Below, one piece after another: positions 8,222 to 62,330 of a DNA stretch of 64,000 nt. Below the pieces are notes generated by a model, which was not told where the DNA came from, made no database searches, and saw only the letters and a program-made list of their open reading frames with translations. Position numbers and translations under genes: made by a program. The first letter of the stretch is position 1. Each line of letters begins with the position of its first letter. The stretch is from an archaeon (lineage in GTDB: Archaea; Aenigmatarchaeota; Aenigmatarchaeia; CG10238-14; SCSR01): contig DATEAB010000045.1 in the NCBI GenBank assembly GCA_035288545.1, positions 1,329 through 65,328 on the forward strand. The letters are read 5' to 3'.

Positions 8222-8509
8222 TTATTTCACCAATTTCTCTATTTTGTCCGCTAAATTGAAATCTTTTTCCGTCAGCCTGCCCTCGTCGTGCGTTGTCAAG
8301 TTCAGCTGCACCGTATCGTACTTGATCAGGATATCTGGATGATGATTGCTGTTTTCCGCTACAGCAGCGACTCGTGTGACGAACCACATCGCTTCAATGA
8401 AGGTTCTGAATTTGAAAACTTTCCAAATCTCTTTTCCCTTCAGCTTCCATCCTTGCAATTTTTTCAATTCTTCATTAATTTGTTTTTTTCCGTATCTCAT
8501 GAGAGCCAC
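8222..8509 (-). CDS. Pterin-4a-carbinolamine dehydratase (PCD/DCoH)
   Basis: 95 aa. FKFRTFIEAMWFVTRVAAVAENSNHHPDILIKYDTVQLNLTTHDEG matches the PCD fold signature (E...HHP...W). Confidence 0.78.
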   Translation of the reverse strand: MALMRYGKKQINEELKKLQGWKLKGKEIWKVFKFRTFIEAMWFVTRVAAVAENSNHHPDILIKYDTVQLNLTTHDEGRLTEKDFNLADKIEKLVK

Positions 8510-8615
8510 AGGTGGGAATTGAACCCACGACCTTCCGCTTACATTCCGCTCGATTTCTCGATGGGCGGGTGCTCTTTGTTGCGTTTTTTCAACGAACCAA
8601 CTGAGCTACTGTGGC
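8504..8615 (-). tRNA. tRNA with apparent insertions in the D-loop (~20 nt) and anticodon region (~19 nt); anticodon not resolved
   Basis: Minus-strand read: GCCACAG-TA-GCTCAGTTGGT[TCGTTGAAAAAACGCAACAA]AGAGC-A-CCCGCCCATCGAGAAATCGAGCGGAATGTAAGCGGA-AGGTC-GTGGGTTCAATTCCCAC-CTGTGGC-T. Acceptor, D stem, T arm and discriminator are canonical. The anticodon arm cannot be folded without removing an insert. Confidence 0.5.
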
Positions 8616-13851: not shown

Positions 13852-13947
13852 GGGACAGTAGCTCAACCCGGGAGAGCAACTGATGATGAATCAGCTCTAT
13901 ATCGCCTGAAGAGCGATGTGTTCGGAGTTCAAATCTCCGCTGTCCCA
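13852..13947 (+). tRNA. tRNA-Phe(GAA) with a ~22-nt insertion between the D stem and the anticodon stem
   Basis: GGGACAG-TA-GCTCAACCCGGGAGAGC-[AACTGATGATGAATCAGCTCTAT]-ATCGC-CTGAAGA-GCGAT-GTGTT-CGGAGTTCAAATCTCCG-CTGTCCC-A. The anticodon arm is a perfect stem with the classic Phe loop CUGAAGA. The insert position (about 25/26) is non-canonical. Confidence 0.75.
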
Positions 13948-14005: not shown

Positions 14006-14578
14006 ATGCAGGAAAAAATTTTGGAAGGAGAATTAATTGAAAATCGCGTGATACTTTGGGATAGCGAAGCTGTCAGCATTTACGACGAGAACGGTTATGG
14101 GAAGCCGCTGCCTGAAGAAAAACCAAATCGCGTCGAACTTGAGCTGATTGAAGCAGTTTACCTTGTAGAGAAAGAGAAGTTGAAAGTTTTTGTGAAGGAA
14201 GAGGGTAAGAAAAAAAAGAAAGAAGTTGAGTTTAAAGAGTTGTTGGAGATAGGAAGCAAACAGGTGAACGAATTTCATCCGCAATTCATAGTTTTTCGCG
14301 ATTTGCGCGAGCGCGGCTACTTGGTCAAATCAGGGTTCAAGTTCGGCACCCACTTCCGATTGTACGAACGCGGTGTGAAGCTGAAAAGAGGGCCGAAGGA
14401 GGCAGGCGAGCACACAAAGGCCGTCGTGCATGCGGTTCCTGAAGAGGCTGCGTTCAGTCTTCCTGAGATGTCCCGTGCAGTGCGGCTTGCCCACAACATT
14501 CGAGCGACTTTCTGGTGGGCTGTTGTTGATCGTGAAGGCAGTGTAACGTATTACGAAATAAAGAGGCTTACTCCTTGA
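14006..14578 (+). CDS. endA: tRNA-splicing endonuclease EndA
   Basis: 190 aa. FRDLRERGYLVKSGFKFGTHFRLYERG...AVVHAV...RLAHNIRA aligns with the archaeal EndA catalytic domain (catalytic Tyr/His/Lys context). Immediately downstream of the intron-bearing tRNA-Phe. Confidence 0.85.
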   Translation: MQEKILEGELIENRVILWDSEAVSIYDENGYGKPLPEEKPNRVELELIEAVYLVEKEKLKVFVKEEGKKKKKEVEFKELLEIGSKQVNEFHPQFIVFRDLRERGYLVKSGFKFGTHFRLYERGVKLKRGPKEAGEHTKAVVHAVPEEAAFSLPEMSRAVRLAHNIRATFWWAVVDREGSVTYYEIKRLTP

Positions 14579-18920: not shown

Positions 18921-19015
18921 TGGGTCCGCAGAGAATTGAACTCTGTTCTTCACCGTGCTCCCAATGTTTCTTCCAATGTTGTGAGGGTGACGTCCTACCG
19001 GTAGACTACGGACCC
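18921..19015 (-). tRNA. tRNA, probably Val(CAC), with a ~24-nt insertion in the anticodon loop
   Basis: Minus-strand read: GGGTCCG-TA-GTCTACCGGTAGGAC-G-TCACC-CTCACA[ACATTGGAAGAAACATTGGGAGCA]C-GGTGA-AGAA-CAGAGTTCAATTCTCTG-CGGACCC-A. The TCACC/GGTGA stem encloses a 31-nt loop. The loop begins CUCACA (anticodon CAC if the intron is at 37/38). The 5' end overlaps the stop codon of the adjacent CDS by 10 nt. Confidence 0.55.
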
Positions 19016-21989: not shown

Positions 21990-22265
21990 CAGAAGGCGCG
22001 CCGCAAGTGGATACAGACCTCCAGAGCAGTTAACCCGCATATCCTTCTCCATCATGTATCCTTCAAGCATCAAAACAACTAACTTATCCTTGCTCGGTTC
22101 CCCGCCTAGGGAGGTTCGATAATTGCCTGACCCTGTAGGGCATGACTTCTCAGTCGGAAACACGGACTGCGCTACAGGTTTTGCATCGCCTCTTGGCTTC
22201 AGTCGAGCATGTAGGCCATTTCTCGATTAAGGTGAGGCCTAGCCACCCCGCTTAGCCCTCTGCAT
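21990..22265 (-). ncRNA. GC-rich structured RNA, candidate signal recognition particle (7S) RNA
   Basis: The interval has no credible ORF and is locally GC-rich. The minus strand reads, 5' to 3': an Alu-domain-like GGUGGCUAGGCC and CCUGUAGCGCAGUCCG, then a helix-8-like CUAGGCGGGGAACCGAGCAAGGAUAAG (GGAA tetraloop plus AGCA asymmetric loop). The ends can pair (GCAGAG/CUCUGC). Strand and ends are tentative. Confidence 0.35.
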
Positions 22266-26901: not shown

Positions 26902-29900
26902 GTGGGGGTTTTGATTAATTCCATAAAAATTTTGTTCTTTATTATTTTTCTGACTGTTATCTTTATAAATTACTTTGCTTTTCCTGTTTTGGCAACAATC
27001 AGTTTGAATGTTTCAGCTTCTCTCACTACGCAGCTAAATAAAAATATAACAATCAAAGGCTCGATAGTAAATACAACTACTTCTGACACGATAGCTGGAA
27101 TAAATGTTACTGCAGTTGTGAATGGGAGTGGCGCTTCTCAAACAACAGGAGCAGACGGAACTTTTCGTTTTAACATAACCGCTCCTAACACTCCCGGAGA
27201 AAAGTTTGTTACTATCACAACAAATTCAAGTTCTCTTCGAACTGAAACAATTCCTATTTTTGCGACCAACTTGACATCAGGAAGCATTTCTTATGTAGGA
27301 AACTTCCCGCCATTTACCAACGGCTCAAACATGACAATTAATATCACTTTGTTTAATGGTACAATACCTTTCGCAAATTATTTTCCCAACGTGAGTATTT
27401 ACAAATCAAATGGAGGAAGAATCTCTTGGGGAATTTACAATTATTCGGCCAGTACTGGCACTGGTGGATTCATCACTTTCAACGTAACAATCCCTGCTAG
27501 TGCGGAAATCGGGCAGTATGCGATTGTTGTCGAGCGTGGTGCACTGTTCACAATTTTCGAGATAAGATCGAACTACATGATGGCAGTCAGCACAATGTCG
27601 ACTGCTGATGAGAGAACGTCGAATTTTGCTCCTAGCGGCACTGTGAATGTTCTTGCAAAAGTCAGGACAACAACTGGAAATCCTACCAGTGCGACAGGCA
27701 TCTCTGCGCTGATAACTCTTCCAAACGGAACTGTGCGAAATATCTCGCTCTCCGTGCATCCGACCCTTACTGGCCAGTACAACAAAACCTTCACAGAGAC
27801 GTCTGCTTCCGGGCAATATCAAGTCGCAATTTATGCAGTTGTCGCTGGCGCTCAGCTCCAAGCCAACACAGTTTTCAGCACAAAAGTTTTTGAGGTGGAT
27901 TTGGAAATGCAGAAGAAGTTCTTCATGGAATGGGGAGGTCAGGCTGCGTTCAAAGCAGGCGGCGTGGTCGCGCTTGACATCGTTCCAATTAATATGACAG
28001 ACGACACCACGATAAACGTAGGCGGGGCGGTATGGCCTGCATGCAACACAACTTATCTCAAGATGGTTGATGTCACTTATCCCAACGGAACCTCCATCAA
28101 CAGCTCCCAACCGATTGTAGGGGTGTCTTTCTCAACAAGCCAGAGCCTGACCGACAGCGTTTGCAAAATCAATTTTACAGCCCCCGCTGTTACTGGCGCT
28201 TACGGATTGAAAGTCAATGTGACGGTCGCAGGGGTGACTGAACAGGCAGAAGGATTTTTCGCAGTTCAGAAAATTTTCCTTAAAGTTTCCCCTGTTTCAG
28301 GACTGGGCGGACAAGAGGATTTCATGTCAGTAGTTTCGCCTGGAGAAAATGTGACCCTTGATATGACGGCGTATAACCTGACAACTGAAGCTCAAATCGA
28401 CGGCACAAGCATTTCAAACATAGTTGCAAAAAGAATCGTTCCTCTTGAATTTGCAACAGGCAGCTCCGAACTGACAACGCTCAATCAGTCAGCCACAACA
28501 GGGAGCAACCCGCAAATACTTGTCCAGATTCCTTCCTCGGTCATGGGGCCTGCGATTGTCGAGATAGAGGCAAGCGTTGGAACTGAGAAAGTCATCGGTA
28601 CTGCTTTCTTCATTTCCAATTATCTTTCAGGATTTCTGTTTCCCGCTTCCGGAATGGGCGGTGAAGGCGGCGGGGATTTTGGCGGCGCGCCTTTCGCCTC
28701 CTGCTCAGGCACTCTTAGCTTCAGGGGAAATGTCAACGAAGTGAAGACAGGGACGGCTGCACAAGGAGTGAGCGTTGTAAGCATCATACAGGCGCGCGAG
28801 GAACTTACAGGCCGCGATGTCAGCGGCATGCTTTCCATTGCCGGCACTACGGCAAGCGACTCGAACGGGCAGATAACCATCAACGTCACATTCAGTCCGA
28901 GCAGCGGATACGGCTTCTCAGGTTTCTATTTCATGATTTTCAACGCAAGCTACAAAGGCAATTCCGCAGGCCTGCCGGCTGGTTTCATGTGCAAGCAACT
29001 GGACTTCTGGCCGACCATTCAGGCGATAGGAACGACACAGGAGAGCTGGCGCGTGTCGCCGACATCAGGAGTCAACGTTACAATTTCAAATGTTGCCAGA
29101 CTGAACGACAGTGCGATAATAACTAACAGGAGCTATCTCACCCTTCCAACAGTTTTCAACTTCAATCCCTCAAAAGGTGGGATGAAAGTTCTTATTCCGC
29201 AAAACATTTCTGCTCTCAACGCGACTTTCGTGCAGAGAGGAAACAACTATACAGCAGTCGACTCAAACTACGTCAGTCTTGCGATTTACCCACAGAACTT
29301 CACTTCGGGCGGCCAGGCTCTCACAGAGTGGCCCAACGGTTTCCTTGATCTCCAGCCGCGCATTACGTCTGTTGATATTGACGGGGCGTCCGATACAGGT
29401 TTCGGCGGGTTCCAGGTCGTCGGCTTCGACGCATGGATTGAGGGATGGGACTGGGGAGCGAAAGGAGCAGGTCAGACTCTCTCTTATGTAGTCGACGTCA
29501 GGGCGAATGTCAGCAAGAACGTGACGAATGCAGCTGGCGAGAATGGTATTGTGCCTGACACTGTTTTCGTACGAACTTCTGCCAGCAACAACATGACAGG
29601 ATTCACTGTCAGGATCGGAAGGCCGTGGGAAGGCGAAATGACGACACTCACAGCAGTCAACGCGACTCTGCTTTCCGACGGATGGAACCATAGCAGCAAC
29701 ACGAGCTTCGAGAGGTGGAACGTGACATTTGTCATTCCGCAGACCACGAAGAAAGGAGAGGCTCAGCTTGTCATTACGGTCAACAATTCTAACGGCCAGG
29801 AAACAGACATCGACCTTTGGTTCACGATAACAAAATACACAGTTATACTTCCCTCGGAGGAAGGTCTTGGATCTCAGCCGTCCTCTCCATTCGACGCGTA

Positions 29901-31416
29901 CTACATTCCCATGGTCGACAATGGCCAGTGCAGTGGGGGATGCGGCGGCAATACCAGTGCATACGGCTGGAACATGACATACATCAATTATACGTACGGC
30001 ATAACCTCTCGCTCGACTGGATGGAACCCATCATGGGCGGGCAAAGTCTGCGTGAAGAACCAGTTCAACGTGACTAGATATGTGCAAGCCAACCAGCTCG
30101 CCATCACGATCAATAGCAGCGTGCGCGTGGCAGTGGTCGACAACCGAACCGCTGGAGTGTACGACACTGTCATACTCAACAACACCGAGGGCAACATAAC
30201 AATTTTGAACACAACAGACATCAATTCAAGGAAGTACGGCTCGAGCGCGCTCTACTTGTGGTCGATAGAGGACTGCGGATATGTGAAGTTTGTCAACGCC
30301 TCGTCAGGCGCGCTGCCTAGCTCAGGCAACTGGGGCGGCTCTCATCAAGCCAACACCAACTTCACCATTCCTTACGTAATCACTCTTGCCAACACGCCTC
30401 AAGCGTCAGTCAACGTCAGCATAAGGTCAATTGGCAAGCAGGACGACCGCGGTTTCGGATTTGAGGGCAAGATGACAGTAGGGGACACGCCAAGAGGGAA
30501 CTACACCTCTGTGCCGGTCAACGCGACGACTGATACGAACGGCATCGCGTTTGTCGGAGTGAATGTCTCGGCAAGCGGGCGCCTTGTTGCTTTCTGGAAG
30601 ATCGACACCACAGCAGGCGACACAGACATAGCCACGATGAGCAGCGCTACATTTTTCGAGTCGAAGGCTTTCAGCACGAACGGCTACAGCGTTTTCGACC
30701 TTCCGATGAGATATGTCAATCTCACTTATGTCGCAAATTCCGGAGGCGGATACCTGGGGGCGTTCGCGGCAGCAAGCGAGCCGTGGGTGTACGCTGCGAA
30801 CGTTACAGAAACGAATGCGAATGATTTTGTCCGCGACGGCACTGCTGCGACTTATTACATTGTCTATGCTCCTAACAGGAACGCCACGAAGACATCAACA
30901 TCAACAGACCTTTCCGGCTCGGCTGCTGACTACCTCAACGCCACAACCAGCATCGGTGGAACGAGTCTGGCAGTGGCATGGATGCATCCCAACTCTTCTG
31001 CGACCGGCTCTCTACAGTTCGTATTTTTCCAGACAAGTCCGCAGGGAAACAGGCCGACGACCGTCACCACAGGGACTGAAAACATAACTGTTGCGGTGTG
31101 TGGGGAAGGATATGAAAAGCCGAACGCGCGGCCGAAGGAAGGGGCTGCAGTCAGGCTGACTGTGACAGACTGGTCTGCATTCCCGCCTTCAACTAAGAAC
31201 TTGCAGATGTATGAGATGCAGAACCACACGGCCATCGCTCTGGGCAGCTCGGCAGTGACAGGACCGAAGGGATGCGCTCTCCTCAACGTCGGCCCAGGCC
31301 AGCTCAGCACGTGGCCGTCAGCAAGCGCAGGCAAGCCTCCAGTGTTCATCGAAGGAACAGTCACCTCGGGCAGCTTGGTTGAGAGCGTGTACGTCACAGA
31401 TGTTTTCAGGATTTAA
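26902..31416 (+). CDS. Giant secreted cell-surface protein (1504 aa) rich in Asn/Thr/Ser and N-glycosylation sequons
   Basis: N-terminal signal/TM MGVLINSIKILFFIIFLTVIFINYFAFPVLA. Dozens of N-x-S/T sequons (NIT, NVT, NGS, NAT...) run throughout. No C-terminal TM segment. Probable S-layer or adhesin-type glycoprotein. Confidence 0.6.
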   Translation: MGVLINSIKILFFIIFLTVIFINYFAFPVLATISLNVSASLTTQLNKNITIKGSIVNTTTSDTIAGINVTAVVNGSGASQTTGADGTFRFNITAPNTPGEKFVTITTNSSSLRTETIPIFATNLTSGSISYVGNFPPFTNGSNMTINITLFNGTIPFANYFPNVSIYKSNGGRISWGIYNYSASTGTGGFITFNVTIPASAEIGQYAIVVERGALFTIFEIRSNYMMAVSTMSTADERTSNFAPSGTVNVLAKVRTTTGNPTSATGISALITLPNGTVRNISLSVHPTLTGQYNKTFTETSASGQYQVAIYAVVAGAQLQANTVFSTKVFEVDLEMQKKFFMEWGGQAAFKAGGVVALDIVPINMTDDTTINVGGAVWPACNTTYLKMVDVTYPNGTSINSSQPIVGVSFSTSQSLTDSVCKINFTAPAVTGAYGLKVNVTVAGVTEQAEGFFAVQKIFLKVSPVSGLGGQEDFMSVVSPGENVTLDMTAYNLTTEAQIDGTSISNIVAKRIVPLEFATGSSELTTLNQSATTGSNPQILVQIPSSVMGPAIVEIEASVGTEKVIGTAFFISNYLSGFLFPASGMGGEGGGDFGGAPFASCSGTLSFRGNVNEVKTGTAAQGVSVVSIIQAREELTGRDVSGMLSIAGTTASDSNGQITINVTFSPSSGYGFSGFYFMIFNASYKGNSAGLPAGFMCKQLDFWPTIQAIGTTQESWRVSPTSGVNVTISNVARLNDSAIITNRSYLTLPTVFNFNPSKGGMKVLIPQNISALNATFVQRGNNYTAVDSNYVSLAIYPQNFTSGGQALTEWPNGFLDLQPRITSVDIDGASDTGFGGFQVVGFDAWIEGWDWGAKGAGQTLSYVVDVRANVSKNVTNAAGENGIVPDTVFVRTSASNNMTGFTVRIGRPWEGEMTTLTAVNATLLSDGWNHSSNTSFERWNVTFVIPQTTKKGEAQLVITVNNSNGQETDIDLWFTITKYTVILPSEEGLGSQPSSPFDAYYIPMVDNGQCSGGCGGNTSAYGWNMTYINYTYGITSRSTGWNPSWAGKVCVKNQFNVTRYVQANQLAITINSSVRVAVVDNRTAGVYDTVILNNTEGNITILNTTDINSRKYGSSALYLWSIEDCGYVKFVNASSGALPSSGNWGGSHQANTNFTIPYVITLANTPQASVNVSIRSIGKQDDRGFGFEGKMTVGDTPRGNYTSVPVNATTDTNGIAFVGVNVSASGRLVAFWKIDTTAGDTDIATMSSATFFESKAFSTNGYSVFDLPMRYVNLTYVANSGGGYLGAFAAASEPWVYAANVTETNANDFVRDGTAATYYIVYAPNRNATKTSTSTDLSGSAADYLNATTSIGGTSLAVAWMHPNSSATGSLQFVFFQTSPQGNRPTTVTTGTENITVAVCGEGYEKPNARPKEGAAVRLTVTDWSAFPPSTKNLQMYEMQNHTAIALGSSAVTGPKGCALLNVGPGQLSTWPSASAGKPPVFIEGTVTSGSLVESVYVTDVFRI

Positions 31417-35384: not shown

Positions 35385-35642
35385 ATGAACGACGAGAACC
35401 ACTTCAAGGAAAGGATAGAGGAAATTTTAGCGAAGCATCCAGAAGGTTTATCTATAGCCGAAATTTCTCGACTTCTTGGCGCGCATAGACACACAGTTAC
35501 CAAATATATCCAATTTCTAATGGGTGCTGGAGTAATTTATCAACGCGATCTCGGCACTGTGAAATTGCATTACTTAGCAAGCAAACTCCCCGAGAAAGAA
35601 AAGCTGCTTCTTGAAAAATTAAACAGGCGGGGTAAAAAATGA
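35385..35642 (+). CDS. Small winged-HTH transcriptional regulator
   Basis: 85 aa. LSIAEISRLLGAHRHTVTKYIQFLMGAGVIYQRDLGTVKLHY is an HTH plus wing. Stop overlaps the start of the giant gene (ATGA). Confidence 0.6.
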   Translation: MNDENHFKERIEEILAKHPEGLSIAEISRLLGAHRHTVTKYIQFLMGAGVIYQRDLGTVKLHYLASKLPEKEKLLLEKLNRRGKK

Positions 35643-38600
35643 AAGTTAATAAAATTATTGCTAATAGAATTATTCTTCTTGCTGCAGTCTTCATCTCATT
35701 TTCATTAATGGGAATTTTTGTTAGTTTAATTCTCTTTGCCGAACCTGCTAAAGCAGAAGTAAGAGTTTGGAGATACAATGCTACTAATGCAAGTCTTTTT
35801 TCCGTGTTTAATAAAAGTGATGATGACACGACAACTCCACCTGCTTGGACTTCAGGATGGGACGGATCAAACGTTAGTGCTAGTTATTATGCAAACGTTT
35901 TAGGTGCTCAAGGCACTGGTATTAACGTTACTTCAGGTGGTCAGAATGACGAACCTTGGGTGAGATTTAATGTAACTATCATTCAAAACAAGTCGCAAAT
36001 TGTTTGGGTGCATGTCTCATTGACGCAGAGGAAAAATTCTTTGGCAGATGGAGGCGAAGATTGCACTTATATTATGGCTAATTATACTTCCTCTGGAGGT
36101 ACGGGACAGTGGTTTAAATTTGCCTCCGATGTCACAGGCATAACAGATACACAAAGATCCTTTAATCTTTCACGTCTGACTGACTCTGATCAGTTTGAAA
36201 ATATTACGGATGGTTATGCAACAGGAAAAAATCTACAAGTCGGTAATCTTGTAATAAGAGCAAACGGTATTAATGAAGATGCTGATGAAGGATGTGTTGT
36301 TACAAACGCTAGCGTACATGTTGGATATGACGACACTGCGCCGATATGGAGCAATGCAACGAACAATTTCACGTACGCCTATCCGAGCATAAAAACTGTT
36401 GCTGCCATGAGAGGTGAACTTATTAACATTTCTGCAAACGTGACCGATAACTACGGCGTGTTTACAGCATGGCTTTTGACAAACGAAACTGGTGGAGACA
36501 GAAACTACACGTACGACCAGCTTGCAAATTCTTCAAACTACACGATAAGAATTTTGGGTGGAGGGTCGATAATAGACCAAGCTCATAACACAACTACTGA
36601 AGGTGCGATGGTTAACTGGACTTGGCAAAACATGACAGGCGCCCCACGTGCAATCAAATGGCATATTTTTGTTAACGACACAGCAAACAACACGAACGGA
36701 ACTACTAACGGCGCGAGCGGAATCGCCGATATAGGAAACTTCACGATGTGGGGATGGGCAAACGTTACTCCTCCTAACTGGCTAAGTTCACAAATGGTGC
36801 CTGCGTCTGCAACTCCAGGCAATGTAGTTTACATACAAGTCAATGTGAGTGACGTGAACTTGACATGGCTAGAGCCAATAAATAGTTACAACGTAACTTT
36901 CTTTTACCGCCAAGAACCAGGAAATTATGTTTCACTTGGAGCCAACTGGACAAATTCTTCAGGAATTGCTGGATTTTACTGGGACACTACTGGCTTGTCA
37001 GGTGGAAGATATTTCCCTATGGCAAACATAACTCACAATGCAACTCTTTTCTACAACACAACTTATGTTCACAATAGCACAAACGGGACTATCGATCTTG
37101 CGGCAGCAGCTGTTGTTAACTACGGTAATGGTACGCTTCAAGTAGGCGTCAGCTCGAGTACAGATAGAGCACAAACTGTGAAAAGAGCACCGATCATCAA
37201 TCTTGTACAGAATCCGATAACCGCCCAAATAGTTGGCCTTTTCAAGTCATTAACAAATGCAATAAACGCCCTGACAAGCATACCTGCAATTTTTGCGCCT
37301 CTAAGACTTTCAATCATATCACCAATTTTGTCCACTCCAATTTCTAACTTTTTCACACAAGTGAAATCAATAGCTCAAGCCATAACTTCAAATTTCGTTT
37401 CTTCAAATCTCGGATATATTTCAAGATCAATAGCAAACGCAATAACAACTTCTCCTTTAACTGCAAGAATAGTTTCCTTAATAAAAATTATAACATCTCC
37501 ATTTGTTTTTGCATTTCAAACCATTGCTGGAAAAGTTTTGCAATTTCAAACATCACTCACATTAAGCGTGACGTCAACCGCTTCAAGAATATTTACAGGA
37601 GTCAGACCGATATCGAATGCAATTACATTTTCTACAATAACTGCCAGAATAACGAATTTCGGCAGAAGCCTGATTAACGCGTTATCATTTAACACAATTG
37701 CAACAAGAACTGCATCGTTCTTCAGAACAATCTCTCAGCCATTTACATTTACTACTCAAGTAACGGGCGTGTTCGCGCAGGGCGTTCAAGTTATTAACAG
37801 AGCTGTGGAACTGGCACTTTCAATAACCAATACAGCAACAAGAATTTTCACAGCGGTAACATTTCCAACACAGCAGCTTTCTTTCACAACATTAGTGCAG
37901 AGAATAACATTGCTAAACAAAGCTTTAACCAACACACTTTCATTTAACGCTCTAGCAATTAGATCAGCAACGTTTCTAAGAATTGCATCTCAATCATCCA
38001 CCTTCTTAACAAACGTTACAACTGCAATAACTATACTCACGTCACGAGTTGCTACTTTAACGATTTCTATGATAAACACAGCAACAAGAATTTTCACAGC
38101 GGTAACATTTCCAACACAGCAGCTTTCTTTCACAACATTAGTGCAGAGAATAACATTGCTAAACAAAGCTTTAACTAACGCAATATCATTTAACACAATT
38201 TCTTCCAGAATTGCGATATTTTCTCGTCAAGTTTCCCAACCCTTTGTTTTCAGTTTCGATCTTTTCACTAGAGTAATTGTTGGAGGAATTGCAGAAAGAA
38301 CTGCTGCTTTGCAAATATCATTAAGTAATTCGGCATCAGCTGTTTTAACTGCAGCACGTTTTCCAACATCAGCAATAACTACAAACACAATAGTATTAAG
38401 AACGCAACTTCTTTTCAAAGCACTTTCACAAACTCTAAACTTCTCAACAATATCGGCAAGAATACTCTCAACAACGAGAACAGTCTTCACAAACTTAACA
38501 TTCTTAACTTCGAGCATTAGGACAAGAATAGTACCAAGAGTAACAACTGCAGCGATTACGTTCTCTAACGCAATTGAAAAATCATTATTATTTGTAAGAC

Positions 38601-40153
38601 CGATAACAGCGCAAATAACTTTTGCTCAAAATGCAATAAAGCAACTTTCCTTCTTTAGAACAATCACTCAAACTATTAATTTAAATGACTTGGTTATAAG
38701 AAGTCAGCCATTTTTGAGAATTGTCACAGGAACTTTCAGATTTAATTTCGGAGCAACTGCTGTAAATCAAACTGGAACCACCACTACCACAACATCCTCT
38801 GCTGGTCCAGGCCCAGCACCAAGTGCAGGCAGTGGAGCAGGCAGTGGAGCAGGCGGTGGTGCAGCCGCTGCCCCAGGAATTCCTATCTCGATACTAGCAC
38901 CACCACCGTCATTCATTCCAACCCCAACGGTTGCAATTGACTTTACACAAATAGAAGTGCTGCAGGAAGTAGTTCCGGATCAAGCTCAAAACATATCGTT
39001 TGAAATTAAGAACAAAGTCAACACGACTCTGGGCAATGTTACTGTCACTTTCAGTGGAGTGCCTGAAGATTGGATTAAAGAAAAACTTGTTGGCAAGAGT
39101 CTTAATCCAAATGAAAAAACAGAATTCGAAATCCCCGTATCGCCATCTCGAGGCACAGGGAGTGGGGATTATCGTGTGGATATTAGTGTAAAAGCCGGAG
39201 GAGTCGTCGATAAAGGATTTTTCATAATTCGTGTCAAACCTAACGCAGGAGAAACCAACGCACCTTCTGTGACAAGGTCAGTTGTGGTGAACAGTGAGGA
39301 GAAAAAGACAACCTTCACATTAAATGTTGTAAATGTGAAAGGAACAGACACAGTAGAAGTGCAAGAAGATATACCAAAAACAATTGCGAACAGCACAAAG
39401 GAAATATTTTTTGACACTCCGCCGACAAAGATAATAAAGGACGATCCGATTGTCGAATGGCAACTCAAAAATTTCAAGAAAGGAGAGAGCAGGATCATCA
39501 AATATTCTGTTCAAAAAATTTTGGTAGATTACGCCCCGTATGTTTACTTCCCATTGAAGCAATTTAGCATATCTTCCAAATCAACATTAGAAAACTTCAA
39601 GTTGCTACTGTTTGACATTCCACCCTTCTATTCGGGACATGCGTCAATTGTTACGTTAAGAATTGAAAACTCAGATTCAAAGTCCCACAACTTCAGCTTC
39701 GCAATGGGACTTCCGGAAAAATGGAGCGTACAGCCGCAGCAGATAAACGAAATTATTGGTGACAACGAGCAAAGGGAATACAAGCTCTCTGTTTATGCTC
39801 CTTCGAGCGAACCTTCTGGAATTCGCATCATTCAGGCTCAATATGCCTGGGATGATTCAGCTGTAATAAGAGAGTATAGTGTGATTGTTTCACAAATAAT
39901 TTCATTTGACACCATAATCTACATCACCATTGTAATAATTGTAGTATCGGCAGCATATTTTGCAATAAAATCCTATATATCTTATAGAGGAACTCCAATG
40001 GAAACCTTACGAAAACTGAGAGCAATAGTAAAAAGCAGGACACCGATTCATCTAGCGCCTCATGAGCATTCCAAACAATACAGTGGCATTTTTTACGACG
40101 CGCTGTATCATTCAAAACATCTGTCGAAAAACAAAAAGGAGAATAAGTTATGA
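35639..40153 (+). CDS. Giant cell-surface protein (1504 aa) with N-terminal signal/TM, N-glycosylation sequon-rich ectodomain, internal tandem repeats, Gly/Ala/Pro linker and C-terminal TM anchor
   Basis: N-terminus MKVNKIIANRIILLAAVFISFSLMGIFVSLILFAEPAKA. Degenerate ~35-40-aa repeats span about aa 520-1010, including two exact 100-nt DNA copies. Linker GPGPAPSAGSGAGSGAGGGAAAAPG. C-terminal TM IIYITIVIIVVSAAYFAIKSYI. Confidence 0.6.
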   Translation: MKVNKIIANRIILLAAVFISFSLMGIFVSLILFAEPAKAEVRVWRYNATNASLFSVFNKSDDDTTTPPAWTSGWDGSNVSASYYANVLGAQGTGINVTSGGQNDEPWVRFNVTIIQNKSQIVWVHVSLTQRKNSLADGGEDCTYIMANYTSSGGTGQWFKFASDVTGITDTQRSFNLSRLTDSDQFENITDGYATGKNLQVGNLVIRANGINEDADEGCVVTNASVHVGYDDTAPIWSNATNNFTYAYPSIKTVAAMRGELINISANVTDNYGVFTAWLLTNETGGDRNYTYDQLANSSNYTIRILGGGSIIDQAHNTTTEGAMVNWTWQNMTGAPRAIKWHIFVNDTANNTNGTTNGASGIADIGNFTMWGWANVTPPNWLSSQMVPASATPGNVVYIQVNVSDVNLTWLEPINSYNVTFFYRQEPGNYVSLGANWTNSSGIAGFYWDTTGLSGGRYFPMANITHNATLFYNTTYVHNSTNGTIDLAAAAVVNYGNGTLQVGVSSSTDRAQTVKRAPIINLVQNPITAQIVGLFKSLTNAINALTSIPAIFAPLRLSIISPILSTPISNFFTQVKSIAQAITSNFVSSNLGYISRSIANAITTSPLTARIVSLIKIITSPFVFAFQTIAGKVLQFQTSLTLSVTSTASRIFTGVRPISNAITFSTITARITNFGRSLINALSFNTIATRTASFFRTISQPFTFTTQVTGVFAQGVQVINRAVELALSITNTATRIFTAVTFPTQQLSFTTLVQRITLLNKALTNTLSFNALAIRSATFLRIASQSSTFLTNVTTAITILTSRVATLTISMINTATRIFTAVTFPTQQLSFTTLVQRITLLNKALTNAISFNTISSRIAIFSRQVSQPFVFSFDLFTRVIVGGIAERTAALQISLSNSASAVLTAARFPTSAITTNTIVLRTQLLFKALSQTLNFSTISARILSTTRTVFTNLTFLTSSIRTRIVPRVTTAAITFSNAIEKSLLFVRPITAQITFAQNAIKQLSFFRTITQTINLNDLVIRSQPFLRIVTGTFRFNFGATAVNQTGTTTTTTSSAGPGPAPSAGSGAGSGAGGGAAAAPGIPISILAPPPSFIPTPTVAIDFTQIEVLQEVVPDQAQNISFEIKNKVNTTLGNVTVTFSGVPEDWIKEKLVGKSLNPNEKTEFEIPVSPSRGTGSGDYRVDISVKAGGVVDKGFFIIRVKPNAGETNAPSVTRSVVVNSEEKKTTFTLNVVNVKGTDTVEVQEDIPKTIANSTKEIFFDTPPTKIIKDDPIVEWQLKNFKKGESRIIKYSVQKILVDYAPYVYFPLKQFSISSKSTLENFKLLLFDIPPFYSGHASIVTLRIENSDSKSHNFSFAMGLPEKWSVQPQQINEIIGDNEQREYKLSVYAPSSEPSGIRIIQAQYAWDDSAVIREYSVIVSQIISFDTIIYITIVIIVVSAAYFAIKSYISYRGTPMETLRKLRAIVKSRTPIHLAPHEHSKQYSGIFYDALYHSKHLSKNKKENKL
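37200..38700 (+). repeat. Intragenic tandem repeat array (degenerate ~105-125-nt units; two 100-nt copies identical at 37829 and 38078)
   Basis: The string aatacagcaacaagaattttcacagcggtaacatttccaacacagcagctttctttcacaacattagtgcagagaataacattgctaaacaaagctttaac occurs twice, 249 nt apart. Flanking units share the protein pattern ...T(A/I)(T/S)RI..F.R.(I/V)SQPF.F... Confidence 0.7.
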
Positions 40154-50987: not shown

Positions 50988-51119
50988 TGCAGGGGGCGAG
51001 ATTCGAACTCACGAACGGACTAACCGACAGCGTTTCTTATTTCATCTTTTCATCAAAGCTCAAATTTCTGTTTTGAAAACTTGAGCGCTGCCCCTTTGAC
51101 CAGACTTGGGTACCCCTGC
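50988..51119 (-). tRNA. tRNA-Leu(CAA), class II, with a ~46-nt intron at the canonical 37/38 position
   Basis: Minus-strand read: GCAGGGG-TA-CCCAAGTCTGGTCAAAGGGG-CAGCG-CUCAAG[46 nt]A-CGCTG-TCGGTTAGTCCGTTC (variable arm)-GTGAGTTCGAATCTCGC-CCCCTGC-A. The anticodon loop reads CU-CAA-G before the intron. Confidence 0.72.
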
Positions 51120-51873
51120 GTGAATCATAGTAAGATTCTGGGTTTATAAAACCCTTTAAAATTTTAATTCTTTCATTTAAGGTAGTTTTTGGTGGAACAT
51201 AACCGAACTTTTTCCATATAGATACTTTTGTTTGATGGACAGGATTTTTTGTGCCGATTAAATTTAACCATTTTTGAATGGAACTTTTTTCATTAATTTC
51301 AAAAATATAAACAGGATTTTTATCATTTTTCCAATTAAAAGGACTTGGATTGGAATGTTTTATTCCAATATTCTTAGATAAAAACTTAATATCATCAATA
51401 AGTCTTTTCGAAATACATGCTATTCGTATTCTTGGTCTTACATGAAAACTACTTTTTCTTTTTGGATTCGGATCCCTCATAAAATAAATCGAACCATCTG
51501 TATCAAAAATTCCTCTTAACAATGGAATAAAATATTTTTTATTTCTTTTAAACTTGTCTGGAATGAAGGTTCGCGATGCTTTTTCGCCTTGTAACATTCC
51601 TAGTTCTAAAAATTGTTTAATTATTTCTTTTTTATATATTCCAACCCCATAAGTTCTCCAATATAAAAAAGATCTCGGCTGTAAATCTATTTTCAATTCT
51701 TTTCTAATCAAAGGTGCTAGATGATTATCATAATATTTCTTATCTTCTGTTAAGTTACCTGTAATAAAAAGATTTTTTCCATTAGATTGTATCCACCCAT
51801 CTCCAATAATAGATCCACAAATTTCGCTAATTCCTCTTGTGATTTTCATATTTTTATTTTGCACAGTATTCAA
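51037..51873 (-). CDS. LAGLIDADG homing endonuclease (double-motif, I-DmoI-like)
   Basis: 278 aa, very AT-rich. Two motifs, ICGSIIGDGWI and LLRGIFDTDGSI. The ORF continues on the same strand through the 5' exon of tRNA-Leu, and its stop lies inside the tRNA intron. Confidence 0.7.
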   Translation of the reverse strand: MNTVQNKNMKITRGISEICGSIIGDGWIQSNGKNLFITGNLTEDKKYYDNHLAPLIRKELKIDLQPRSFLYWRTYGVGIYKKEIIKQFLELGMLQGEKASRTFIPDKFKRNKKYFIPLLRGIFDTDGSIYFMRDPNPKRKSSFHVRPRIRIACISKRLIDDIKFLSKNIGIKHSNPSPFNWKNDKNPVYIFEINEKSSIQKWLNLIGTKNPVHQTKVSIWKKFGYVPPKTTLNERIKILKGFINPESYYDSRRGTQVWSKGQRSSFQNRNLSFDEKMK

Positions 51874-53121: not shown

Positions 53122-53233
53122 TGCGCCAGCCGGGATTTTCAGGGCGAACCTTTTGAACCCGGGTCTCGGCCGTGGCAGGGTTCTACTGCCATTATCTGGC
53201 ATCCGTATCTTAACCAGGCTGGACTACTGGCGC
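53122..53233 (-). tRNA. tRNA with expanded D-loop, ~16-nt insertion in the anticodon region and ~16-nt insertion in the T-loop; anticodon not resolved
   Basis: Minus-strand read: GCGCCAG-TA-GTCC-AGCCTGGTTAAGATAC-GGAT-G-CCAGATAATGGCAGTAGAACCCTGCCACGGCCGAGAC-CCGGG-TTCAAAAGGTTCGCCCTGAAAAT-CCCGG-CTGGCGC-A. Acceptor and T stems are perfect. The T loop is 23 nt instead of 7 and reduces to TTCAAAT once the insert is removed. Confidence 0.5.
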
Positions 53234-53326
53234 TTCACAAAACGCACGCTAAAATTGCCACAAATGCCACAAAAATTTGTTTTGTTTTGCCACTTACCAT
53301 TTTTTATTTTTGCCACGTTTTTATTT

Positions 53327-53675: not shown

Positions 53676-53781
53676 AGCCTCGGAAGGGATTTGAACCCTT
53701 GACCTTCTGCTTACGAAGCAGTTGAGCTCACAATTTTTTCCATTTTTTGTGATTTGCTCTACCGAACTGAGCTACCGAGGC
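53676..53781 (-). tRNA. tRNA-Thr(CGT) with a ~31-nt insertion between the D stem and the anticodon stem
   Basis: Minus-strand read: GCCTCGG-TA-GCTCAGTTCGGTAGAGC-[AAATCACAAAAAATGGAAAAAATTGTGAGCTC]-A-ACTGC-TTCGTAA-GCAGA-AGGTC-AAGGGTTCAAATCCCTT-CCGAGGC-T. The insert carries an internal inverted repeat TCACAA/TTGTGA and ends with a GAGCTC duplication of the D-stem junction. Confidence 0.62.
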
Positions 53782-53895: not shown

Positions 53896-54903
53896 ATGCA
53901 GGAAGCGCAACTTTGGCATAAGGAGCGCAACGGGGTTCGATGCGAGCTTTGTGCAAGAAAATGTTTCATAGCAAAGGACAAGTTCGGCTATTGCTTGGTT
54001 CGAAAGAATGTCGACAACAAGCTTTACACAACAAATTTCGGAAAGATCCAGGACATTTCCTTTGACGCAGTCGAAAAACGGCCGCTGTTTCATTTTTTTC
54101 CAGCTAGCACCAACATGAGCTTGACAATTCCTGGCGACAATTTTCCGACCACGGACATAACGCAGCTTTACAAGGACAGAAAGCAGGAAGCGACAGTCGG
54201 GAAGGACTACACACCAGAAAATATCGTATCGATGGCAGAGGACAAGGGGGTCTTCGGCATAAGCTTCTCCGCCGCGGAACCGTTCATGCAGTTCGAATTC
54301 GCATATCGCGTGGCAAAGCTTTCCCATCGCAGCAATATAAAAAATATTCTTGTCACGAACGGCTTCACGACCGAAGAGGCCGTGAAAAAAATCGCGAAAT
54401 TTATTGACGCGGTTGTCATCAACCTCAAAGCCTCGCTCGACCCGGAATTCTATTCAAAATTTTTGGACGTCCATGACGTGAGGCCAATTTACGACATCAT
54501 AAAGCAGTTCAAAAAACAGCGCGTGCACATCGAAATCACAAACACGATAGTTCCGCAGGTTGGCGACAACACCGACCAGTGCAAAAAGGTTGCTGAGTGG
54601 ATTAACGCCGAGATAGGTTCTGAATTTCCAGTCCACATCATGCAGTTCCACTACGACCCTAAGCTTGCCGACATACCTATGACACCTGTTTCGACTTTGG
54701 AGAGATGCATAGAAGTCACAAACAACGCGGGAATCCGCTACGTTTACATCGGAGGAGTGCCAAAGCACGAAATGCAAAACACGATTTGTTACAATTGCCG
54801 GGAGCCTCTTGTCATTCGCGAGGGAAGCAAGGTGAAAAAAGTCCATTTGTCGAAAGACAGATGCCCGAATTGCGGACTGAGAATCAACATGATTGTCGAA
54901 TAA
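53896..54903 (+). CDS. PflA/AmmeMemoRadiSam-like protein lacking the canonical radical-SAM CxxxCxxC cluster motif
   Basis: 335 aa. N-terminal WHKERNGVRCELCARKCFIAKDKFGYCLVRKN...AVEKRPLFHFFPAS mirrors the COG1180 N-terminus (...iEKKPLyHFlPGS...). The expected GCNxxCxxCQN that follows is replaced by TNMSLTIPGDNFP, with no Cys. C-terminal Zn ribbon CYNCREP...CPNCG. Confidence 0.5.
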   Translation: MQEAQLWHKERNGVRCELCARKCFIAKDKFGYCLVRKNVDNKLYTTNFGKIQDISFDAVEKRPLFHFFPASTNMSLTIPGDNFPTTDITQLYKDRKQEATVGKDYTPENIVSMAEDKGVFGISFSAAEPFMQFEFAYRVAKLSHRSNIKNILVTNGFTTEEAVKKIAKFIDAVVINLKASLDPEFYSKFLDVHDVRPIYDIIKQFKKQRVHIEITNTIVPQVGDNTDQCKKVAEWINAEIGSEFPVHIMQFHYDPKLADIPMTPVSTLERCIEVTNNAGIRYVYIGGVPKHEMQNTICYNCREPLVIREGSKVKKVHLSKDRCPNCGLRINMIVE

Positions 54904-62209: not shown

Positions 62210-62330
62210 AGTCCCGTCGTCTAGTGGCCAAGGACATGAGGCTTTGGACTTTTGGTCACAAAGCTCTGATTGCGAGATGAAGCAGAAAGGAAGATCCCTC
62301 AAAACGTCGGTTCGAATCCGGCCGGGACTA
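62210..62330 (+). tRNA. tRNA-Gln(TTG) with a ~47-nt insertion in the anticodon loop
   Basis: AGTCCCG-TC-GTCTAGTGGCCAAGGAC-A-TGAGG-CTTTGGA-[47 nt]-CCTCA-AAAC-GTCGGTTCGAATCCGGC-CGGGACT-A. Perfect anticodon stem TGAGG/CCTCA. The loop CUUUGGA is the canonical Gln(UUG) loop. Confidence 0.65.

Follow-up and report, generated by a model that had tools for sequence, protein, structure and literature searches.

Predicted protein-spliced introns in the anticodon stem and T-loop of a tRNA-Gly(GCC) gene from an Aenigmatarchaeota archaeon

The tRNA-Gly(GCC) locus

The DNA analyzed here is a stretch of 64,000 nucleotides (nt) from contig DATEAB010000045.1 of the Aenigmatarchaeota assembly GCA_035288545.1, which we refer to as the window and number from its first letter. 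It contains a transfer RNA (tRNA) gene that is interrupted twice, once within the anticodon stem and once within the T-loop, and both insertions have the properties of archaeal introns bounded by bulge-helix-bulge (BHB) motifs. The gene is transcribed from the minus strand, which the initial annotation had left unstated, and the coordinates given there are exactly those of the gene, from the discriminator base to G1. Its parts are as follows.

53122-53233, minus strand: complete tRNA-Gly(GCC) gene, 112 nt, with G1 at 53233 and discriminator A73 at 53122, identified from the sequence, the ARAGORN call on the spliced product, and synteny
53203-53233, minus strand: exon 1, tRNA positions 1-29 (5' strand of the acceptor stem, D arm, A26, and C27-G29)
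53181-53202, minus strand: predicted intron 1 of the anticodon stem (position 29/30), 22 nt, AUGCCAGAUAAUGGCAGUAGAA, bounded by a relaxed BHB of the HBh' type
53152-53180, minus strand: exon 2, positions 30-59 (C30-C31, anticodon loop CUGCCAC, G39-G43, variable loop AGAC, 5' strand of the T stem, and U54-A59)
53136-53151, minus strand: predicted intron 2 of the T-loop (position 59/60), 16 nt, AGGUUCGCCCUGAAAA, bounded by a strict BHB of the hBHBh' type
53122-53135, minus strand: exon 3 (U60, 3' strand of the T stem, 3' strand of the acceptor stem, and A73)

The anticodon GCC (Gly) is at 53176-53174, and CCA is not encoded. Read along the minus strand, the precursor begins with GCGCCAG UA GUCC AGCCUGGUUA AGAU A CGG, followed by intron 1, and continues with CC CUGCCAC GGCCG AGAC CCGGG UUCAAA, intron 2, and finally U CCCGG CUGGCGC A. 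The acceptor stem GCGCCAG/CTGGCGC is perfect over 7 base pairs (bp) and is followed by A73, and the T stem CCGGG/CCCGG is also perfect, both as previously described. The T stem encloses a loop of 23 nt (TTCAAAAGGTTCGCCCTGAAAAT), from which a deletion of 16 nt gives back TTCAAAT, again in agreement with the earlier description.

Conventional searches do not recognize the gene. ARAGORN finds no tRNA in the raw sequence, whether its intron options are on or off, nor any elsewhere in the 64-kb window, and the Rfam tRNA model has no match at this locus, either at the gathering threshold or at E <= 10; the Rfam matches that do fall here, to CRISPR-DR47 and the L19 leader, are weak and meaningless. 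The gene is 100% identical to the window in four fetched copies from independent assemblies (of 16 contigs that carry it), and it is therefore not an assembly artefact.

Bulge-helix-bulge motifs and the spliced product

The two insertions were delimited with an explicit BHB scanner, which searches for a 4-bp central helix that is flanked by outer and inner helices and has one 3-nt bulge on either strand, and which places each cut after the second bulge nucleotide. This replaced a brute-force approach in which double deletions were scored by ARAGORN; 864 variants were accepted in that approach, with many different anticodons, and it was hence uninformative.

In the T arm the scanner identifies a strict hBHBh' motif, in which the 5-bp T stem itself (53162-53158 / 53134-53130) serves as the outer helix. 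The central helix is formed over 4 bp by U54-A57 (UUCA, 53157-53154) and UGAA of the intron (53141-53138), the bulges are AAA (53153-53151) and AAU (53137-53135), and a 2-bp inner helix GG/CC closes a loop of UUCGC. The predicted cuts take out exactly 16 nt between A59 and U60 and leave UUCAAAU. No other full strict motif of the 112-nt precursor has a substantial outer helix, and the two weaker strict matches (h = 2, h' = 1) have implausible junctions. The T-arm motif is not expected by chance, because only ~0.1% of shuffled inserts produce a strict BHB with cuts that restore a 7-nt loop (265/200,000, 288/200,000 and 44/40,000 under three null models). The initial annotation had proposed a BHB intron within the T-loop, to be sought at 56/57-59/60; the strict scan places it at 59/60, inside that range, and the scan, the spliced product and the intron-less orthologues described below all agree on it.

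Intron 1 has the relaxed HBh' form only and not the strict hBHBh' form. Its central helix AUAC/GUAG contains one mismatch and is flanked by the bulges GGA and AAC; the 5-bp inner helix is UGCCA/UGGCA, and the outer helix is a single base pair. An insert in the anticodon region had been annotated earlier from two overlapping hairpins, TGCCA...TGGCA and GGCAG...CTGCC, taken together as the signature of a BHB. Both hairpins are present and there is a second intron near the anticodon, but it is situated in the anticodon stem and not in the anticodon loop, and its BHB is a relaxed one. Of the two hairpins, TGCCA...TGGCA alone belongs to the BHB, as the inner helix, whereas GGCAG...CTGCC is a competing pairing of intron 1 with the anticodon loop and lies outside it.

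Removal of the T-loop intron alone is sufficient for ARAGORN in its intron mode to find tRNA-Gly i(34,22), i.e. a gene with a 22-nt intron. When both introns are removed, the 74-nt product is called as tRNA-Gly(gcc) and is canonical, with U33, A37, a G15-C48 pair, C2-G71, G3-C70 and A73. The locus thus has several of the attributes by which archaeal BHB introns are recognized: canonical exons, in-register junctions (G29|C30 and A59|U60), and an EndA gene, which is discussed below.

The GGCAG/CTGCC hairpin lends itself to another assignment, in which it is the anticodon arm of a tRNA-Phe(GAA) with one large insert in the region of the D arm, and ARAGORN did accept 256 artificially spliced variants as tRNA-Phe(gaa). 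However, this would give an anticodon loop UAGAACC with A at position 33 and leave an 11-nt variable region, no BHB supports the junctions, and a genuine tRNA-Phe(GAA) is present elsewhere in the window (13852-13947). It was rejected on the basis of the syntenic orthologues, which are unambiguous tRNA-Gly(GCC) genes, and its likelihood is close to nil.

Orthologous genes in close relatives

Syntenic loci from increasingly distant relatives were retrieved by means of a radical-SAM gene next to the tRNA (53896-54903). The gene order is conserved, with a 97-amino acid (aa) gene, the tRNA, and then radical-SAM, TrmB-like, EamA and S-layer genes. The tRNA-Gly(GCC) genes at these loci differ in their introns; the identities are those of the neighbor protein to that of the window, except where DNA is specified.

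Window: introns at 29/30 (22 nt) and 59/60 (16 nt)
L005, 86% identical: introns at 29/30 (48 nt, tandem duplication), 45/46 (22 nt) and 59/60 (the identical 16 nt)
L228, DNA closest to L006 (75-79%): introns at 45/46 (17 nt) and 59/60 (the identical 16 nt), without the 29/30 intron
L006, 82% identical: no introns
L008, 79% identical: no introns
L009 and L011, about 60% identical: canonical 37/38 intron only (13-14 nt)

The uninterrupted genes of L006 and L008 provide a direct comparison with the predicted splicing products. Their sequence across 29/30 is GATACGG|CCCTGCCAC and across 59/60 it is GGGTTCAAA|TCCCGG, in each case exactly as the BHB model predicts, and the junction of exon 1, GATACGG|CC, is identical in both. 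The three BHB introns of L005 and the two of L228 each reduce to the same kind of mature tRNA. Among close relatives the orthologous gene therefore has 0, 2, 2 or 3 introns, and the T-loop intron is common to three of the five closest orthologous genes (the window, L005 and L228).

The exons have also changed in a compensatory manner. Where the window has A-U and G-C at acceptor pairs 6-67 and 7-66, L008 has G-C and C-G, and pair 28-42 of the anticodon stem, G-C in the window, is U-A in L005. These compensatory changes indicate that the stem split by intron 1 is still selected to pair.

The 29/30 intron of L005 (gene at L005 2452-2611, minus strand) is 48 nt long, compared with 22 nt in the window, and contains tandem copies of GGCAGTAGAAA, which suggests that introns lengthen through local tandem duplication. 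In addition, four copies of GTGGCA are located just upstream of the tRNA-Gly gene (window 53256-53316; TGCCAC on the plus strand and GTGGCA on the tRNA strand). The block that contains them, TTTTGTGGCATTTGTGGCAATTT, is also conserved among L005, L006, L008 and L228, with a spacing to the tRNA that differs between loci. Nucleotides 33-38 of the anticodon loop (UGCCAC) are complementary to GTGGCA, which could be a promoter or regulator site, or a coincidence.

Occurrence of introns at position 59/60

T-loop introns had initially been placed among the rarest intron positions, which is not true of these lineages. Introns at 59/60 were published for ARMAN-2 in 2011 (PMC3239211), and we scanned one genome per species (GTDB representatives) for this T arm and acceptor end with a loop of 10-36 nt. 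The scan yielded 106 loci, 40 of them archaeal and 66 bacterial chance matches. Approximately 30 of the archaeal loci, once the BHB-predicted insert is removed, are tRNA-Gly genes (GCC, UCC or CCC) whose intron lies exactly at 59/60 and measures 12-33 nt. The genomes that contain them are titled Woesearchaeota, Nanoarchaeota, Diapherotrites, Micrarchaeota, Aenigmatarchaeota, Hadarchaeota, Promethearchaeota and Hermodarchaeota, and further loci are in some metagenome-assembled genomes titled Methanosarcinales or Thermococci. Judged by this survey of sequences, 59/60 is a recurrent insertion site in these lineages and not a rarity.

The same loci allow the central helix to be examined at one fixed geometry and without selecting for pairing. 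Of the 40 archaeal loci, 28 form all four central-helix pairs, as against 3 of the 66 bacterial ones, and nucleotide 57 covaries with its intron partner, the pair being A:U 15 times and G:C 14 times among the 40. This covariation is independent support for the BHB.

It also bears on the possibility that the extra nucleotides are kept in the mature tRNA, either as an enlarged T-loop or extra arm, or as part of a long variable arm with the true T-loop elsewhere. The minimum-free-energy (MFE) fold does contain a small AGG/CCU hairpin within the loop that can be read as an extra arm. On the other hand, the BHB geometry is exact and covaries across lineages, and the orthologues in L006 and L008 have a plain 7-nt TTCAAAT at the same place. 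A fold with a long variable arm, the alternative against which the initial annotation had asked to be checked, finds no place in this gene: the variable region is an ordinary 4-nt AGAC and not the arm of at least 10 nt with its own stem that characterizes a class II tRNA, no alternative 7-nt T-loop is present, and no other GTTCRANNC T-loop occurs in the gene. Moreover, a 23-nt loop would destroy the conserved elbow formed by the T-loop and D-loop. Retention of the insert is thus extremely improbable.

The splicing endonuclease

The window encodes a candidate enzyme for removal of these introns.

14006-14578, plus strand: tRNA-splicing endonuclease EndA, 190 aa, single-unit alpha-type (Pfam PF02778 and PF01974)

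Its closest relative of solved structure is the alpha4 enzyme of M. jannaschii (1a79, E = 2.4e-26), followed by the ARMAN-2 epsilon2 enzyme and those of M. kandleri and A. pernix (alpha subunit). Homologues at 72-89% identity are repeatedly titled Candidatus Aenigmatarchaeota, which fixes the lineage. Compared with the M. jannaschii enzyme, six residues are inserted in EndA between its catalytic Tyr and His, and the motif GVKLxRGPK is invariant in 15 of 15 members of the clade; these clade-specific loop residues are G123-V-K125-L-x-R128-G-P-K131, and Tyr120 and His136 are invariant as well. The insertion is in the C-terminal domain, where Kaneta et al. place the 'L3' loop (PMC5829648), the equivalence being positional only. 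A lysine, K39, aligns with A. pernix K44 of the Crenarchaea-type specificity loop (CSL) and was considered as a CSL-like residue; it was dropped, as K39 is not conserved in the clade.

An intron-containing tRNA-Phe(GAA) gene (13852-13947, plus strand) ends 59 nt upstream of the EndA start codon (14006, plus strand) on the same strand, such that a substrate gene adjoins the gene for the enzyme.

Predicted splicing and its assessment

In the proposed pathway, the primary transcript would fold so that each intron is displayed within a BHB. At the T-loop intron, the outer helix would be the T stem, and U54-U55-C56-A57 together with UGAA of the intron would form the 4-bp central helix, placing the cut sites in the two 3-nt bulges at AA|A and AA|U. 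The organism's own EndA (14006-14578) would then cut after the second base of each bulge, and an RNA ligase (RtcB in archaea) would join the exons, restoring both the 7-nt loop UUCAAAU and the C27-C31/G39-G43 anticodon stem.

We conclude, with a probability of about 0.9, that a tiny groundwater archaeon of the Aenigmatarchaeota (DPANN) has here a functional tRNA-Gly(GCC) gene with two protein-spliced archaeal introns. The BHB geometry, the match of the junctions to the intron-less orthologues, the presence of EndA, and the covariation in the exons and in the central helix form the basis of this conclusion.

A number of observations weigh against it. We infer cleavage and ligation in vivo from DNA and not from RNA. 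The BHB of intron 1 is relaxed only, with its central-helix mismatch and 1-bp outer helix, and would need an enzyme of broad specificity. The 16-nt intron is fully identical in all of its copies, so there is no covariation within its own intron family. The MFE fold of the T arm lacks the 4-bp central helix (-11.2 versus -8.9 kcal/mol for the BHB); the BHB motif here is not the thermodynamic optimum, and folding neither supports nor refutes it. BHBs in general are also not expected to be minimum-free-energy folds. No RtcB ligase domain is found among the 30 larger open reading frames (ORFs) of the window that were scanned with Pfam. Finally, EndA has an alanine, A167, at the site of the catalytic Lys of the Tyr-His-Lys triad (AHNIRAT versus AHSVRK), as do all 14 of the sampled Aenigmatarchaeota homologues, and its activity is thus assumed and not certain. 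A lysine of the loop may substitute for the missing triad lysine, or there may be a second EndA subunit elsewhere in the genome.

The view of the genome is also restricted to 64 kb, and a second, intact tRNA-Gly(GCC) gene could be present elsewhere. If so, the gene at 53122-53233 could be a decaying pseudogene with inserts that are never removed, as the failure of both ARAGORN and the Rfam tRNA model on the raw sequence might suggest. This is very unlikely, since BHB motifs bound both inserts and restore the register to the nucleotide, and the exons are those of the intron-less orthologues except in the D-loop, with compensatory changes in the stems. Furthermore, the T-loop insert and its BHB are unchanged in three lineages in which the flanking DNA is only ~73-78% identical, an EndA gene is present, and all seven tRNA genes of the window are interrupted alike (see below) and cannot all be pseudogenes.

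A shared intron in tRNA-Ser(GCU)

Neither intron has further copies within the window at up to 3 mismatches. A pattern scan of metagenomes for the 16-nt intron family, which is a sample and not a census, gave at least 118 loci, with 108 of 118 being chance matches. Among the matches listed, the identical 16-nt intron AGGTTCGCCCTGAAAA is present at 59/60 of tRNA-Ser(GCU) genes in L189 and L193, where the T stem is ACGGG/CCCGU. It therefore occupies position 59/60 both in tRNA-Gly(GCC) (the window, L005 and L228) and in tRNA-Ser(GCU) (L189, L193 and L237).

The gene adjoining tRNA-Ser has homologues that are 74-87% identical, after which identity drops to 52%, and one of these homologues is on the same 838-kb contig as L008. 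This single contig has a tRNA-Ser(GCU) gene (L237) with the identical intron and a tRNA-Gly(GCC) gene (L008) without it. The syntenic tRNA-Ser genes of L238 and L239 have a plain TTCAAAT loop and no 59/60 intron. Presence/absence polymorphism at orthologous sites is thus seen among close relatives for both tRNA-Gly and tRNA-Ser, and near-identical introns are found in non-orthologous tRNA genes (Gly and Ser) of one lineage.

The patchy presence of the intron in two non-orthologous tRNA genes of one clade points to recent intron mobility, and these sequences suggest that the 16-nt T-loop intron moves between tRNA genes. We tentatively propose, at somewhat less than even odds, that it is an actively mobile BHB mini-intron, recently copied between the T-loops of tRNA-Ser(GCU) and tRNA-Gly(GCC) within one Aenigmatarchaeota clade for which before and after genomes are at hand, and that gain, loss and expansion by tandem duplication are under way for the other introns (29/30 and 45/46) of the tRNA-Gly gene. 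If this is true, these groundwater populations would be a natural system for the study of how protein-spliced tRNA introns are gained. Candidate routes of gain would be reverse splicing with reverse transcription, or short-homology gene conversion between T-arms, and processing of the introns would fall to an EndA in which the canonical catalytic lysine is apparently missing.

The identity of the tRNA-Gly and tRNA-Ser introns might alternatively be convergent, with the T-loop forcing UGAA and A-rich bulges. The search pattern itself fixed 11 of the 16 positions of the intron, UUCA dictates the central-helix strand UGAA, and similar introns of 16-17 nt (AGGCACUGCCUGAAAA and AGGCAUUCGCCUGGAAA) are found both in genomes titled Hadarchaeota, in tRNA-Gly, and on metagenome contigs, in tRNA-Pro. 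However, the five unconstrained loop bases UUCGC are identical too, a 1 in 1024 event per comparison with about five real tRNA matches among those listed; both genes are from one narrow clade, as reflected in the neighbor proteins (74-87%, then 52%) and the shared 838-kb contig; and the patchy distribution among close relatives, seen for both genes, is in keeping with recent gain or loss. Convergence is accordingly considered unlikely.

Very similar 59/60 introns of 16-17 nt were noted at four other loci. Those of L162 and L217 (metagenome contigs) are in tRNA-Pro and are AGGCATTGCCTGAAAA and AGGCAATGCCTGAAAA, and those of L103 and L071 (genomes titled Hadarchaeota) are in tRNA-Gly and are AGGCACTGCCTGAAAA and AGGCATTCGCCTGGAAA.

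Comparison with known systems

T-loop BHB introns at 59/60 are already known, from ARMAN-2 and from the multi-intron tRNAs of Thermoproteales, and the tRNA-Gly locus leaves the accepted picture of archaeal tRNA splicing unchanged. In ARMAN-2 (Ca. Micrarchaeum acidiphilum), Fujishima et al. (2011, PMC3239211) describe 59/60 T-loop introns with strict or relaxed BHBs in pre-tRNA-Cys(GCA) and pre-tRNA-Pro(GGG). As described there, this archaeon resembles the present one in belonging to the DPANN group, in having its intron exactly at 59/60, with a strict hBHBh' in tRNA-Pro, and in combining further non-canonical introns with an EndA bearing lineage-specific loop insertions. It differs in the tRNA species (Gly in the window), in the position of the second intron (53/54, compared with 29/30 here), and in its EndA, a three-unit epsilon2 enzyme (PMC3239211) in contrast to the single-unit protein of ~190 aa found here.

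Multi-intron tRNA genes and intron transposition are features of the Thermoproteales (Sugahara 2007/2008, Fujishima 2010, as summarized in PMC4033280). That summary reports several BHB introns at non-canonical positions in one tRNA gene, near-identical introns across tRNA species that are interpreted as transposition, and quick intron turnover between relatives, all of which are paralleled here. The Thermoproteales are, however, Crenarchaeota with an (alpha-beta)2 EndA that has a CSL loop (PMC4033280), whereas the host here is a DPANN archaeon with a different EndA architecture. In addition, the intron copies described here are 100% identical, and they are in genomes close enough to show presence and absence at orthologous sites.

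Alpha4-type EndAs with an L3 loop, from DPANN and Hadesarchaea, have been linked to heavy tRNA gene disruption (Kaneta et al. 2018, PMC5829648). The EndA of the window is similarly a single-unit enzyme with an insertion in its C-terminal region, in a genome rich in interrupted tRNA genes, and the lineages named there (DPANN and Hadesarchaea) are those in which our scan of GTDB representatives finds 59/60 introns. The Aenigmatarchaeota enzyme is unlike these in apparently lacking the canonical catalytic lysine, to which the available text of that work does not refer (PMC5829648).

The canonical archaeal intron at 37/38 shares the BHB geometry and the enzymes, and is the sole intron in the distant orthologues L009 and L011. 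In contrast, neither intron of the window tRNA-Gly gene is at 37/38, and the outer helix of the T-loop intron is the T stem and not the anticodon stem.

What the locus adds is evolutionary: a before-and-after series of orthologous genes, an intron shared between Ser and Gly, and an unusual EndA of the clade. It is a well-documented case of a T-loop intron outside the Micrarchaeota and Thermoproteales, and the series is fine-grained for a single gene, with 0, 2, 2 or 3 introns among relatives in which the neighbor protein is 79-86% identical. Close before/after genomes are the material needed to address how BHB introns are gained.

Other tRNA genes and features of the window

A structural scan identified seven tRNA genes in the window, all of which are interrupted by BHB-type inserts.

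8504-8615, minus strand: CAU-anticodon tRNA, two inserts
13852-13947, plus strand: tRNA-Phe(GAA), intron at 27/28
18921-19015, minus strand: tRNA-Val(CAC), intron at 37/38
50988-51119, minus strand: tRNA-Leu(CAA), intron at 37/38, 46 nt
53122-53233, minus strand: tRNA-Gly(GCC), introns at 29/30 and 59/60
53676-53781, minus strand: tRNA-Thr(CGU), 32 nt after nucleotide 27, strict BHB with the 3' strand of the D stem
62210-62330, plus strand: tRNA-Gln(UUG), intron at 37/38, 48 nt

ARAGORN detects none of the seven and Rfam detects two at the gathering threshold. Standard tRNA finders thus miss most of the tRNA genes here, and DPANN genomes annotated in this way will look short of essential tRNAs.

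An ORF with a weak Pfam match to PF14528 and LAGLIDADG-like character (51037-51873, minus strand) runs into the tRNA-Leu(CAA) gene on the same strand. Its last 83 nt overlap the 5' exon of tRNA-Leu, its stop codon is inside the tRNA intron, and a homologue is syntenic in L008. Two ORFs of equal length (1504 aa; 26902-31416 and 35639-40153, both plus strand), about 4 kb apart, may be paralogous large surface proteins. An archaeal signal recognition particle RNA, which confirms the archaeal origin of the window, is located at 21990-22262 on the minus strand (Rfam RF01857, 111.8 bits).

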